IMG/VR virus record: IMGVR_UViG_2778261691_000003
Location: 1-19,783 of that record
Source of the DNA: a virus
Taxonomy: Duplodnaviria > Heunggongvirae > Uroviricota > Caudoviricetes
DNA length: 19,783 bases
Strand: one strand, 5' to 3'
A model generated the notes under the pieces. That model was not told the DNA's origin and ran no database searches. It saw only the letters and a list, made by a program, of their open reading frames with translations. Each line of letters starts with the position of its first letter. Position 1 is the stretch's first letter. The position numbers and the translations under genes are program-made. Of the stretch, positions 2,934 through 16,353 are shown piece by piece.

Positions 2934-3406
2934 ACCTCAATCTCTCTGACCGTTCCGCCTGCTTCTTTAAATTTTGCAATCAGGCTGTCAACTTTATGCT
3001 CGAACTGACCATAACCAGCGCCCGGCAGTGAAGCCCATATATTGCTGCAACGATCGATAGCCTGACGGATATCACCGCGATCAATCATCGGTAAAGCGCC
3101 ACGCTCTTTAATCTGTTGCAGTGCCACAGCGTCCTGGCTTTTAGGAGAGAAGTCTTTCAGGCCAAGCTGCTTACGGTAGGCATCCCACCAACGGGAAAGA
3201 AGCTGGTAGCGCCCGGCGGCTGTTGATTTGAGTTTGGGGTTTAGCGTGACAAGTTTGCGAGGGTGATCGGAGTAATCAGTGAATAGCTCTCCGCCTACAA
3301 TGACGTCATAACCATGATTTCTGGTTTTCTGCCGTCCGTTATCAGTTCCCTCCGACCACGCCAGCATATCGAGGAACGCCTTACGTTGATTATTGATTTC
3401 CACCAT
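2930..3406 (-). CDS. R: endolysin R (lytic transglycosylase)
   Basis: 158 aa; [52 protein letters not shown] is essentially the lambda R sequence as recalled. Confidence 0.95.
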
Positions 3407-3713
3407 CTTCTACTCCGGCTTTTTTAGCAGCGAAGCGTTTGATAAGCGAACCAATCGAGTCAGTGCCGATGTAGCCGATGAACACGCTCGTTATATAAGC
3501 GAGATTACTACTTAGTCCGGCGAAGTCGAGAAGGTCACGAATGAACCAGGCGATAATGGCGCACATCGTTGCGTCGATTACTGTTTTTGTAAACGCACCG
3601 CCATTATATCTGCCGCGAAGGTACGCCATTGCAAACGCAAGGATTGCCCCGATGCCTTGTTCCTTTGCCGCGAGAATGGCGGCTAACAGGTCATGTTTTT
3701 CTGGCATCTTCAT
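3390..3713 (-). CDS. S: holin/antiholin S (dual-start S107/S105)
   Basis: 107 aa; [62 protein letters not shown] matches lambda S including the Met1-Lys2-Met3 dual start; upstream DNA ...CCCCTTATTGGGGGTAAGAC-ATG is lambda-like. Confidence 0.95.
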
Positions 3714-3838: not shown

Positions 3839-3868
3839 GGCAGGAGGTTGTTAGCGCGACCTCCTGCC
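3839..3868 (-). terminator. stem-loop with short U-run on minus strand, between tRNAs and S (possible tR'-like element)
   Basis: Perfect 9-bp inverted repeat GGCAGGAGG / CCTCCTGCC with a 12-nt loop; minus-strand RNA is followed by GUUUUGCCC (only 4 U). Confidence 0.4.
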
Positions 3869-3955
3869 ACCCGCTTTCACGAAGATCATGTGTAGAAGGC
3901 CGCAGCGTAACTATCACTGATGAATTCAGGATAGCCAGTGGCTACGGCTCAGTTA

Positions 3956-4031
3956 TGGTGCTGGTTAACGGACTTGAACCGCTACCCATTCGCTTACAAG
4001 GCGACTGCTCTACCATTGGAGCTAAACCAGC
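3956..4031 (-). tRNA. tRNA-Thr (anticodon UGU), phage-encoded
   Basis: 76-nt minus-strand sequence GCTGGTT TA GCTC CAATGGTA GAGC A GTCGC CTTGTAA GCGAA TGGGT AGCGG TTCAAGT CCGTT AACCAGC A CCA. Perfect 7-bp acceptor stem, 4-bp D stem, T-loop TTCAAGT, encoded CCA; anticodon loop CUUGUAA gives UGU. Confidence 0.75.
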
Positions 4032-4036
4032 ATGTT

Positions 4037-4111
4037 TGGCGGGACAGCGTGGGCTCGAACCACGATAAGAAGGTTAACAGCCTTCCGTAATGACCTTTAT
4101 ACGACTGACCC
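4037..4111 (-). tRNA. tRNA-like gene, possibly tRNA-Asn (anticodon GUU), atypical
   Basis: 75 nt: GGGTCAG TC GTA TAAAGGTCAT TAC G GAAGG CTGTTAA CCTTC TTAT CGTGG TTCGAGC CCACG CTGTCCC G CCA. Perfect T arm and anticodon stem, but one U-U mismatch in the acceptor stem and only a 3-bp D stem; lies 5 nt upstream of the tRNA-Thr. Confidence 0.45.
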
Positions 4112-4157
4112 AAATAAAAAAAGCCACCGTTGCAACTTAAGAGTCACTAACGGCAGC
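4112..4157 (-). terminator. terminator-like hairpin plus U-tract between Q and the tRNA pair
   Basis: Minus-strand GCUGCCGUU...AACGGUGGC (9 bp with two G-U, 17-nt loop) followed by UUUUUUUAUUU; the large loop lowers confidence. Confidence 0.3.
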
Positions 4158-4174
4158 TTACCTTCTAATTATGG

Positions 4175-4693
4175 CTAAATGGATAATTGCATGTCAAGGC
4201 TTTTAACAGCAACATGCTTAACTTTCTCAACACGTTTACGCATTTTGAAAGCATTTTGCATTGGCTGGTACAAAACAAATAACGACGCTTTCAGGATGTC
4301 GTCAATTTCGTTTCTACAGGTTGCCAGTGAAGGTTTTCTACATCCCTCGCCACCACGTCCACACATCTTGCGTGGCTTTGCAGTCGCGTGATAGTAGGAT
4401 GCAATTGCTCGCTTAGATGAACCATGAGCGTAGTAGCTGAGGAGGATGCCAAAGGCTTTCTTGTCAATGTACATGACGGAATCGACGACCTGAGAAATCA
4501 ACATTCCATCATCATCATTGCACATTGGCCTTGTCATAACTCTTCCCGGCTCTACGCTCTCCATGAACTTCGCTATTACGCTGCTCATGCGCTTTTCCAG
4601 ACGACCTGAATAAACCCATGCGCCCCACAGTTCAAGCCAGCCATTCAGCCACTCATGCTGTTCTTTGGTGAGGTTTAGTTCTCTTATGCCCAC
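4175..4693 (-). CDS. Q: late-gene antiterminator Q (non-lambda type; phage-82/21-like Q family)
   Basis: 172 aa with the WLELWGAW motif recalled from the Phage_antitermQ family; sits between ninI and the lysis genes; GTG start at 4693 preceded by GGGAGAAGG; overlaps the ninI stop by 10 nt. Confidence 0.7.
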
Positions 4694-14690: not shown

Positions 14691-14979
14691 TAAGCGTGAA
14701 ATATCGCAAATAATCGCAAGTTTTACTGATGAAGATTACGAACGAATCAACAGTGAAGTTGATCGCCTCTGCAAACGTTGCGACCCAATAAGCGAAATGC
14801 TTCGCTCATATAAACCAGATGAACACACTAAGGACGCTATCGACTGGCTGGAAGATGATGACTGTAACTATCAGGAAAAAGCCGCTGAATGGTTCTGGGA
14901 TGCAATAACCGAAAGAGTTAAGGCTGAATATGCCTTCGCAATATTCAAACGCAGACACATTTTTGGAGAAGCTGCATGA
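14668..14979 (+). CDS. hypothetical protein (103 aa) immediately upstream of recT
   Basis: AGGAG 5 nt upstream of ATG 14668; its stop overlaps the recT start (ATGA). Confidence 0.5.
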   Translation: MMILTLNDKREISQIIASFTDEDYERINSEVDRLCKRCDPISEMLRSYKPDEHTKDAIDWLEDDDCNYQEKAAEWFWDAITERVKAEYAFAIFKRRHIFGEAA

Positions 14980-15887
14980 GCAATATCGTTGAATTCGTTA
15001 AACAGCAGGAGCAGTTATTCTGCGGAGCATTGACTAAACAGACGGTGACATGGGCTAAGGAAAGCCAGTTTGCAATTCAGTATTTCCAGAAAAACGATTA
15101 CCTGGCTAAAACAGCACTGGCAAATCCAACCAGCGCACAGAACGCCATCATCAATGTTGCGGCGATCGGCATCACCTTAAACCCGGCCAGCAAACTGGCT
15201 TATCTGGTTCCGCGCGACGGCATGGTGTGCCTTGATATCAGTTATATGGGATTGCTCCATATTGCAATGGAGTCTGGTGTTATCTCATGGGGTCAGGCAA
15301 AACTTGTTCATGCTAACGATACCTATGAGTCAAACGGGCTTGATAAAGCACCAACCCATAAATACAACGCCTTCGGTGATCGTGGTGATATCGTTGGCGT
15401 TTACTGCACAGTTAAGACGCCAGCAGGTGATTATCTAACGGAAGAGATGAGTCTGGCTGAAATTGAGGCTGTAAGGAAAACAAGCAAGGCGGCCTTCAGC
15501 GATAAAGGACCATGGGTAAATCACTGGAATGAGATGGCGCGAAAGACGGTCGTAAAGCGTGCAAGCAAGTATTGGCCTAAGGCATCACGTCTTGATAGTG
15601 CTATTCACGTACTAAACGAAGAAGAAGGTGTGTGGACTGAACCAGTTATGCCGCACAAATCAGAGGAAGATATCCGCGAAGATGAACGGAAACGCCAGCA
15701 GGAAATAACGGATAAAGCACAACTTCTTTGTGATGAAATGGCTCAGGCAGAAAACATGGATGATTTGAAGCGATATTTTGCAGAAGCATATCGCCTGACA
15801 TCTGGAATGAAATTGCAGCAGAACGTACAAGCCATTTACGCAGAATGCAAAGCGAAACTGGAGGTTGCCAGTGAGCAAACTGTATGA
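14976..15887 (+). CDS. recT: RecT-family single-strand annealing recombinase
   Basis: 303 aa; GPWVNHWNEMARKTVVKRASKYWP matches the RecT motif recalled from Rac RecT (GPWVTHWEEMAKKTAIRRLFKYLP). Confidence 0.85.
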   Translation: MSNIVEFVKQQEQLFCGALTKQTVTWAKESQFAIQYFQKNDYLAKTALANPTSAQNAIINVAAIGITLNPASKLAYLVPRDGMVCLDISYMGLLHIAMESGVISWGQAKLVHANDTYESNGLDKAPTHKYNAFGDRGDIVGVYCTVKTPAGDYLTEEMSLAEIEAVRKTSKAAFSDKGPWVNHWNEMARKTVVKRASKYWPKASRLDSAIHVLNEEEGVWTEPVMPHKSEEDIREDERKRQQEITDKAQLLCDEMAQAENMDDLKRYFAEAYRLTSGMKLQQNVQAIYAECKAKLEVASEQTV

Positions 15888-16353
15888 AATTGCCAATGAA
15901 TACGCAAAGCTGATGGATTCAGATTTAGAACCAGAGATGATTGCTGACACAATAGAAGGCATGGAAGGAGAATTTACCGATAAAATAGAGCAACTTCTTG
16001 CCATTATTAAAAATGAATCTGGTTATGCTGAATGCCTCAAGGAAGAGGCAAAGTCACTAAATGAACGAGCCGCAGTAATTCAAAATAAGATTGACAACAT
16101 TATGGCGTATATAGCGTCATCGCTTGAAATGGTTGGCAAGAAAAAGATTCGAGCAGGTATTCACCAGGTAACAATCCGCAAACCGTCAGAAACTGTAGAA
16201 ATCATCGACTCAAGCGCCATTCCTCCTGAATACGTTGAGTTTGAAACGACAATTAAAGCCGACAAGTTGGCAATCAAACACCAACTAAAAGCAGGAATAA
16301 ATATCCCCGGCGCTCAACTCAAAGTTGGGAAACCTTCACTTCTTATCAAATAA
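15871..16353 (+). CDS. hypothetical protein, possibly Gp157-like (Sipho_Gp157 family)
   Basis: I call the GTG start at 15871 (GGAGG 6 nt upstream), not the ORF-track start at 15865; MSKLYEIANEYAKLMD...; overlaps the recT 3' end by 17 nt; family assignment is from memory. Confidence 0.4.
   Translation: MSKLYEIANEYAKLMDSDLEPEMIADTIEGMEGEFTDKIEQLLAIIKNESGYAECLKEEAKSLNERAAVIQNKIDNIMAYIASSLEMVGKKKIRAGIHQVTIRKPSETVEIIDSSAIPPEYVEFETTIKADKLAIKHQLKAGINIPGAQLKVGKPSLLIK

Follow-up and report, generated by a model that had tools for sequence, protein, structure and literature searches.

The two tandem tRNA genes between the late antiterminator gene Q and the holin gene S in the DNA analysed here (the window, 19,783 nucleotides of a virus of the Caudoviricetes) are, as judged from sequence, an already known phage 21-type late-leader tRNA cassette. 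The best explanation for this cassette, to which we give a probability of about 0.72, is that its tRNAs are Q-dependent, nuclease-resistant substitutes for host tRNAs. According to the proposed mechanism, the late promoter pR' would fire constitutively and yield a leader of ~50 nt that is halted at the terminator tR'. With Q present, RNA polymerase would pass tR' and transcribe the two tRNAs first, RNase P and 3' processing would free them, and S, R, Rz and the virion genes would follow on the same transcript. The phage tRNAs would then stand in for host tRNAs destroyed by abortive-infection Toprim tRNases, and with these replacements the ACA-rich late genes would stay translatable. The function of the tRNA-Thr has been demonstrated experimentally by others in 2025-2026, and the module had been annotated before in several records, which the first-pass annotation of this DNA missed.

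Layout of the late regulatory region

On the late strand, the elements are arranged in the order Q with pR', a 50-nt leader with tR', tRNA-Asn, tRNA-Thr, an 87-nt spacer, a second hairpin and S. The cassette itself measures 156 bp (Asn, 5 nt, Thr) and starts directly after the U-run of tR'. The features in window coordinates are:

3390-3713, minus strand: gene for a lambda-type holin/antiholin S with dual start MKM..., placed ahead of all other protein genes in the late operon (Pfam PF05106 Phage_holin_3_1, 105 bits)
3839-3868, minus strand: lambda-type late-leader hairpin with a 10-bp GC-rich stem, then GUUUUG (folding)
3869-3955, minus strand: spacer, 87 nt (alignments with lambda, Sf6, HK446 and tRNA-less Q21 loci)
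3956-4031, minus strand: tRNA-Thr(UGU), 76 nt, CCA encoded (ARAGORN, tgt; Rfam RF00005)
4037-4111, minus strand: tRNA-Asn(GUU), 75 nt, CCA encoded, discriminator G73 (ARAGORN, gtt; Rfam RF00005)
4112-4161, minus strand: late leader, 50 nt (the 'aRNA' of phage 21), with the tR' hairpin, overlapping the annotated qut region (fold and phage 21/Sf6 annotation)
4168-4197, minus strand: predicted late promoter pR', TTGACA (4197-4192), 18-nt spacing, CATAAT (4173-4168) (11/12 in a consensus scan)
4175-4693, minus strand: gene for a Q21-family late antiterminator, 172 aa (Pfam PF06530 Phage_antitermQ, 90 bits)

The proposal of two tandem late-strand tRNA genes, made at first from the letters alone, is borne out by ARAGORN and Rfam, which call both of them, far above threshold. 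ARAGORN reports two tRNAs in the 19.8-kb window and no others. Against the Rfam model RF00005, for which the gathering score of 29 served as cut-off, tRNA-Thr scores 61.5 bits (E 2.7e-12) and tRNA-Asn 53.0 bits (E 5.8e-10), and each has the cloverleaf and 7-nt anticodon loop of the family. The Rfam alignment also confirms the details first given for tRNA-Asn, namely a U-U mismatch in the acceptor stem (U4·U69) and a D stem reduced to 3 bp by U13·U22. The gap of 5 nt to tRNA-Thr agrees with the called coordinates. Position 9 of tRNA-Asn is C9, and its cloverleaf is weak in minimum-free-energy folding (z = -1.1). The tRNA-Thr had been called canonical, which holds for the tRNA call as such but overlooks C14, read off the sequence where A14 is usual, and a G27·A43 mismatch atop the anticodon stem, found in the Rfam alignment, and hence a functionally important shortened anticodon stem. 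The anticodon arm reads G27 U28 C29 G30 C31 / G39 C40 G41 A42 A43, with U28-A42 paired.

The identity elements of E. coli AsnRS are the anticodon G34-U35-U36 and the discriminator G73, and those of ThrRS are G1-C72, C2-G71 and the anticodon bases G35-U36. The phage tRNA-Asn appears to carry the former set (loop CUGUUAA; 3' end CUGUCCC-G-CCA), and tRNA-Thr the latter (GCUGGUU...AACCAGC-A-CCA, anticodon UGU), and each is thus a predicted substrate of its cognate synthetase. Over all 76 nt, tRNA-Thr is identical in sequence to tRNA-Thr21 of phage 21 and the tRNA-Thr of HK446, and tRNA-Asn is 1 nt off the copies in phage 21, HK446 and Sf6.

The flanking genes are a non-lambda Q and a lambda-type S, as had been stated: Q belongs to the Q21 family and shares 83% identity with that of phage 21, and S is a holin of the lambda S family. 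In the Sf6 record (AF547987), gene 59 is annotated as resembling phage 21 Q, and the place homologous to S is annotated as S107/S105. The earlier suggestion that pR' lies at or inside the 3' end of Q is matched by a promoter-like TTGACA-18-CATAAT at 4197-4168, which sits within the 3' end of the Q open reading frame and spans its stop codon. The homologous site is labelled P R' in the Sf6 record, and a 'pQ promoter' is annotated at the aligned place in the phage 21 record.

Hairpins had been noted on both sides of the tRNA pair, and both fold far better than shuffled sequences. The upstream hairpin (stem 4159-4121, -20.2 kcal/mol, z = -5.4, as good in 0/200 shuffles) has 17 predicted bp with one bulge followed by U7 at 4122-4116, which is the form of an intrinsic (rho-independent) terminator, and the distance from the U-run to tRNA-Asn is 3-5 nt. 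From TAAGCTGCC onward it shows no differences from the phage 21 sequence. The misc_RNA 'aRNA' of phage 21 (AJ237660, 4652-4701) maps to window positions 4161-4112 and ends one base ahead of G1 of tRNA-Asn, and the Sf6 record labels the same hairpin tR', overlapping qut. A PF06530 Q, a promoter-like site and a leader hairpin together constitute a Q21-family antitermination module, on which the action of Q is predicted.

The downstream hairpin folds at -22.5 kcal/mol (z = -3.9, as good in 0/200 shuffles), and its tail, G-UUUU-G, holds 4 U only. Neither hairpin was called by a simple terminator scan, owing to the limits of its pattern, and folding was used in its place. Homology to lambda starts right at the 3' edge of tRNA-Thr (AACTGAGCCGTAGCC...), and the downstream hairpin, at a distance of ~126-155 nt upstream of S, is identical to the lambda sequence. 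Most copies of the cassette keep it; one stem pair is polymorphic, and in rare cases the loop is inverted. The element is a candidate for a second terminator-like structure or for the 3' end of a small RNA, with LPR2 of lambda as the candidate RNA. Two other assignments were rejected: the 6S terminator, on comparison with lambda, and PreS/LPR1, which belongs to the early-left operon. A literature search found no report of additional late-leader terminators in lambda.

A portable cassette under constraint

The assignment to the phage 21 type is based on a 176-nt alignment to AJ237660 with 99.4% identity and on a shared junction, at which TTTTTTTATTT is followed by GGGTCAG. Over a 551-bp region, identity is 97-99% in Sf6, BTP1, HF4s, Bas106 and many Salmonella P22-like phages (97.8% in Sf6). 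The Sf6 annotation (AF547987, Casjens et al.) lists the Q21-like gene, pR', qut, tR', tRNA-Asn, tRNA-Thr ('similar to phage 21') and S107/S105 in this order, and the cassette had also been annotated in the records of BTP1, SfI and phage 21. Among complete E. coli genomes, the region is matched at least in part in 978/5426 (~18%) and is present for the most part in 259; in E. coli genomes, both tRNAs are annotated by PGAP. The cassette is present as well in phages of Salmonella, Shigella, Shimwellia and Klebsiella. The window as a whole is a mosaic, its best matches covering 56% in complete E. coli genomes and 44% in phages.

The late regulatory region of phage 21 resembles that of the window in the order of its parts, the leader hairpin, the identical tRNA-Thr and a tRNA-Asn 1 nt apart. 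The two differ in Q, which in the window is 83% identical with a C-terminus that is 10 aa longer and overlaps pR', and also in the promoter spacer and the -10 region, in which the window represents the Sf6 gene-59 variant.

In a set of 131 cassette copies drawn from IMG/VR and other loci, 112 have Asn-Thr, 7 have Asn only and 1 has Asn-Thr-Gly, and in 9 of the 131 the order is Asn, a Thr left uncalled by ARAGORN, and Gly(UCC). The element upstream is a 21-type tR' in ~105 copies, a lambda-type tR' in ~20 and another terminator in a few, and the insertion junction almost always consists of a T-run, ATT and GGGTCAG. Among 32 Q21-family loci of other species, tRNAs occur in a few only, and in two loci whose Q is 98% identical the slot of the cassette is taken by lambda-like filler. 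In HK446, the same two tRNAs come after a Q, pR', 6S leader and tR' of the lambda type, in contrast to the 21-type leader of the window. Because the upstream terminators vary, near-identical Q loci can be free of tRNAs and the HK446 copy sits behind a leader of another type, the cassette is, by these comparisons, a discrete, optional and portable unit.

Its two genes are strongly constrained. In 85 distinct copies, nucleotide diversity is 0.0125 for Thr and 0.10 for the adjacent spacer, and it is lowest in the region for Asn, at 0.008, a value slightly deflated by the search pattern, which fixed 18 nucleotides of this gene. Recurrent polymorphisms of tRNA-Asn are located in loops. In tRNA-Thr, compensatory changes convert G5-C68 to U5-A68 (five copies) and A49-U65 to G49-C65, and several single changes are compatible with G·U pairing. 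A more distant comparison is provided by a Klebsiella phage, whose Asn homologue has compensated changes at three pairs (A6-U67 to G6-C67, G7-C66 to A7-U66 and A28-U42 to C28-G42) and keeps both U4·U69 and U13·U22. The Thr homologue of this phage has two compensated acceptor pairs, and its entire anticodon arm is the same, G27·A43 included.

It had been left open whether the second tRNA was a pseudogene or a deliberately unusual tRNA. As a decaying pseudogene, tRNA-Asn would merely have been carried along beside a functional tRNA-Thr, and its U4·U69 mismatch, 3-bp D stem, C9 and weak predicted cloverleaf could be taken in this way, as could the fact that it is unannotated in the HK446 records and was overlooked in the preprint on the OLD nuclease discussed below. 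Against decay stand its score with the Rfam tRNA model together with the encoded GUU anticodon, G73 and CCA, its low diversity with loop-located polymorphisms, the Klebsiella homologue, which keeps both mismatches despite compensatory changes at three pairs, and its retention in Asn-Gly cassettes in which the Thr gene has been replaced. Given this conservation and covariation, we judge tRNA-Asn not to be a pseudogene, which we consider very improbable, and we favour a predicted functional, conserved and unusual tRNA; of the two options first offered, the second one stands.

Nuclease resistance and codon usage

The effector of classic P2-lambda interference is the P2 OLD nuclease, which causes cell death by cutting the anticodon arm out of host tRNA-Thr(UGU) (Govande et al. 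2025, PMC12445682). The sites of cleavage are paired CNG motifs (nt 28-30 and nt 40-42), and phage tRNA-Thr(UGU), including tRNA-Thr21 of phage 21, rescue cells by replacing the host tRNA (PMC12445682). For resistance, the CNG motif must be altered and the 27:43 pair lost as well, and the protective tRNA-Thr21 has C28U/G42A and a shorter stem (PMC12445682). The two strands of the anticodon stem are ACUGA/UCAGU in the host tRNA and GUCGC/GCGAA in the window tRNA-Thr, in which nt 28-30 are UCG and nt 40-42 are CGA. The window tRNA-Thr thus has both resistance features, C28U/G42A (giving U28-A42) and G27·A43, and by its sequence is of the OLD-resistant type, the protection having been shown by others for an identical tRNA.

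A second study reported that the tRNA-Thr(UGU) of HK446 restores plating of the OLD-sensitive phages HK97, HK542 and Bas34, whereas E. coli ThrU fails to do so (bioRxiv 10.64898/2026.07.10.737580). A single Thr(UGU) tRNA rescued neither lambda nor recB cells suffering from OLD toxicity, and HK446 additionally needs an anti-OLD protein; the authors of the preprint doubt that its tRNA is primarily anti-OLD (10.64898/2026.07.10.737580). In both OLD-rescue studies (PMC12445682; 10.64898/2026.07.10.737580) the tRNA-Thr was expressed from a plasmid, whereas the identical tRNA of the window lies in its native late leader.

Plain codon supplementation would account for the pair with no nuclease involved, the phage simply providing more of the low-abundance tRNA-Thr(UGU) and of tRNA-Asn for its late genes. 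The codon-usage comparison recommended earlier gives 16.6 ACA per 1000 codons in the late genes of Sf6 (29% of Thr codons) and 10-13 in the open reading frames of the window, as against 5.2 per 1000 (9.8% of Thr codons) in a host sample of 34 E. coli K-12 genes. This enrichment of ACA in the phage genes (~3-fold) speaks for supplementation, as do a modest enrichment of Asn codons (47.6 per 1000 in the phage and 37.6 in the host) and the place of the tRNAs at the head of the late operon, which suits bulk synthesis of virion proteins. However, the Asn codons show no rare-codon bias, and GGA (15.5 per 1000 in the phage and 5.7 in the host) and other rare codons are equally enriched with no matching tRNA in this cassette. 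Moreover, over-expression of host tRNA-ThrU protects nothing whereas the phage version does, and the anticodon arm of tRNA-Thr has exactly the two changes that confer OLD resistance and is invariant while the acceptor stems covary. The ACA enrichment itself fits both readings equally well. Nuclease resistance is favoured because over-expressed host ThrU fails to rescue and the resistance-conferring anticodon arm is invariant, and supplementation as the whole explanation appears unlikely. The two functions are not exclusive and can coexist; high use of ACA would also make the loss of ThrU harmful to the phage.

The role of tRNA-Asn can be considered in the light of a second defence. AriB of the PARIS system cuts host Lys(UUU) and Thr(UGU) as prime targets and Asn(GUU) as a secondary one, at U36AAUC↓A/C41, and full rescue from PARIS takes all three tRNAs in their T5 versions (Belukhina et al. 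2025, PMC12409363). Escape from B185 PARIS needs tRNA-Lys(UUU) (PMC12409363), which the cassette lacks. The tRNAs with which T5 counters PARIS and those of the window have the isoacceptors Thr(UGU) and Asn(GUU) in common, and the Thr of both has G39 and a GUYGC 5' strand of the anticodon stem; in contrast, their overall sequences are only distantly related, and the T5 set has Lys(UUU) and the window none. On either side of the AriB cut, at positions 39 and 41, both window tRNAs are unlike their host counterparts, although the motif alone does not decide cleavage (PMC12409363). Host Asn(GUU) was also among the slower P2 OLD substrates probed. By isoacceptor, the cassette covers the tRNA that OLD attacks foremost and two of the three that PARIS attacks. 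By analogy, we infer that the phage tRNA-Asn may have a counter-defence role and may affect PARIS.

Hence, we tentatively raise the possibility that the Asn-Thr pair is a co-selected two-tRNA counter-defence cassette directed against the ATPase-Toprim tRNases of P2/P4-type elements. If so, U4·U69, U13·U22 and the loss of both CNG motifs in tRNA-Asn would represent nuclease evasion and not decay. The Klebsiella Asn homologue regains a paired CNG motif (GCAGG/CCUGC), and the loss of CNG in tRNA-Asn is therefore not universally conserved. The published work on OLD tested Thr alone and overlooked Asn, and HK446 was described as a single-tRNA phage.

Expression and significance

From their position, we infer that the tRNAs would be made first when Q antiterminates the late transcript. 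The earlier idea that they sit on the short constitutive pR' transcript did not survive: tR' intervenes, and the annotated 50-nt aRNA ends before tRNA-Asn. As tR' lies between pR' and the tRNAs, their expression in a lysogen would need read-through of tR'. In one version of events, such read-through would be stopped at 3868-3839 to give a small tRNA-only transcript in the prophage, from which the host would benefit through protection from a tRNase, its own or co-resident, or through complementation of a tRNA disrupted at attB. We know of no cassette phage that integrates into thrU or asn genes, which counts against this account. The precise bracketing of the tRNAs by two hairpins agrees with a tRNA-only transcript, as does lambda LPR2, a small RNA of the late operon that is faint in lysogens, whereas the 4-U tail of the downstream hairpin and the end of the annotated short transcript ahead of the tRNAs disagree with it.

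Two other phage systems bear on lysogen expression. Owen et al. 2020 (PMC7067206) place the start of the BTP1 lytic operon right behind the tRNAs and report five BTP1 genes with TPM>100 in cultures of the lysogen, 'excluding the two tRNA genes'. This wording hints that the BTP1 tRNAs were detected, at TPM above 100, without deliberate induction, from which leaky or constitutive expression could follow; the tRNA rows are absent from the supplement of that study, and with them the expression values. The BTP1 evidence is weak, spontaneous induction being high in this phage and standard RNA-seq being poor for tRNAs and not quantitative. In the Stx phages 933W and Sakai, the tRNAs ileZ-argN-argO likewise follow pR' and tR' and precede the lysis genes, located between tR' and stx, and the short pR' transcript likewise stops at tR' ahead of them (PMC7547250). 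These phages differ from the window in their Q and leader (the 258-nt StxS) and in their tRNAs, which serve Ile and Arg codons that are rare. A separate promoter has been reported between tR' and the Stx-phage tRNAs (PMC7547250), which would lend support to expression in lysogens, whereas in the window 3-5 nt separate the U-run from tRNA-Asn. A separate tRNA promoter of the Stx type was considered for the window and rejected, the 50-nt leader offering no room for one and the scan finding no promoter-like site there. Taken together, a prophage-expressed tRNA transcript of benefit to the host appears decidedly improbable, and Q-dependent expression with the late genes is preferred.

For annotation, the upstream hairpin can be labelled tR' and the tRNAs, by position, putative Q-dependent late-leader products. 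With late expression and nuclease resistance combined, the cassette would be a natural case of a temperate phage that uses a minimal tRNA set to counter tRNA-cutting abortive-infection systems, among which the mechanism of P2-lambda interference was resolved only in 2025. New ground is limited to the partner tRNA-Asn, which lies outside the scope of the experimental papers. If the two-tRNA reading holds, a trickle of read-through at tR' would pre-load lysogens with resistant tRNAs while the lysis genes stay silent, and if tRNA-Asn too is nuclease-resistant, the pair would be the smallest known multi-target anti-tRNase cassette.

Alternative forms of the tRNA cassette

The two tRNAs of the window cassette are also found in HK446, for which neither the GenBank nor the RefSeq record annotates a tRNA at these positions, and which, according to the 2026 preprint on OLD, the phage-P2 tRNase that cuts host tRNA-Thr(UGU) at paired CNG motifs, 'encodes a single' Thr(UGU) (bioRxiv 10.64898/2026.07.10.737580). 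Two further arrangements occur in other loci, listed here after the HK446 copy:

L039 (HK446, JQ086372) 1211-1285 and 1291-1366: cassette tRNAs
L013 (E. albertii) 3161-3311: alternative allele, in the order Asn, Thr(UGU), glyT-like tRNA-Gly(UCC)
L161 (phage JLK-2012) 991-1144: the same alternative allele in the same order
L163 (Klebsiella phage ST101-KPC2phi6.1) 901-1220: expanded four-tRNA cassette, Asn-Phe(GAA)-Thr-Arg(UCU)

The Thr of the Asn-Thr-Gly allele combines phage sequence in its 5' part with a host thrU-like anticodon arm and 3' part; its anticodon stem has 3 bp only (ACUGA/UCAUC), and it receives no ARAGORN call and an Rfam score of 47 bits. The same preprint also counts Gly(UCC) among the targets of OLD (bioRxiv 10.64898/2026.07.10.737580). 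The four-tRNA cassette lies downstream of a different antiterminator, and its Asn has regained a paired CNG motif (GCAGG/CCUGC). The second cassette tRNA of the Salmonella phage ST64T (L162, about 991-1062) appears degenerate, with a poorly paired anticodon arm (CCUUC CUAAGAA GGGAG) and no ARAGORN call. A14 is nearly universal in tRNAs; the window tRNA-Thr has C14 (window 4018), U14 occurs in six natural tRNA-Thr variants, and the oddity at this position is kept in the Klebsiella homologue.

Sequences around and in place of the tRNAs

In the hairpin downstream of tRNA-Thr (window 3839-3868) and its homologues, one stem position varies as G-C, U-A or a mismatch, the loop is inverted in two copies (GTTAGCGC vs GCGCTAAC), and non-homologous sequence replaces the whole structure in 25 of 104 cassettes. 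This hairpin could form the 3' end of lambda LPR2, an Hfq-bound late-operon sRNA of ~63 nt, whose coordinates were not found in the text of the paper describing it (bioRxiv 10.1101/2024.10.31.621285). Downstream of the cassette of the E. albertii prophage, a near-threshold Rfam match to the sRNA STnc100 was observed (L013 3653-3834; 45.9 bits vs a gathering score of 47).

Where Q21 loci lack tRNAs, the sequence filling the cassette slot contains the T-arm-like stretch GCCGGTTCGATTCCGGC (L008 3227-3285; lambda, L003, about 44.8-44.95 kb) and gives a weak tmRNA/tRNA-clan match (20 bits, E 1e-4). The T-arm-like stretch may be what is left of a tRNA that the lambda-type late leader formerly carried.

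Recombination module and possible OLD triggering

The prophage also carries a recombination module:

Window 14976-15887 and 15865-16353, plus strand: RecT-like protein and Mu Gam-like end-protection protein

Because RecBCD antagonists are known OLD triggers, this module suggests that the window prophage might itself trigger OLD.
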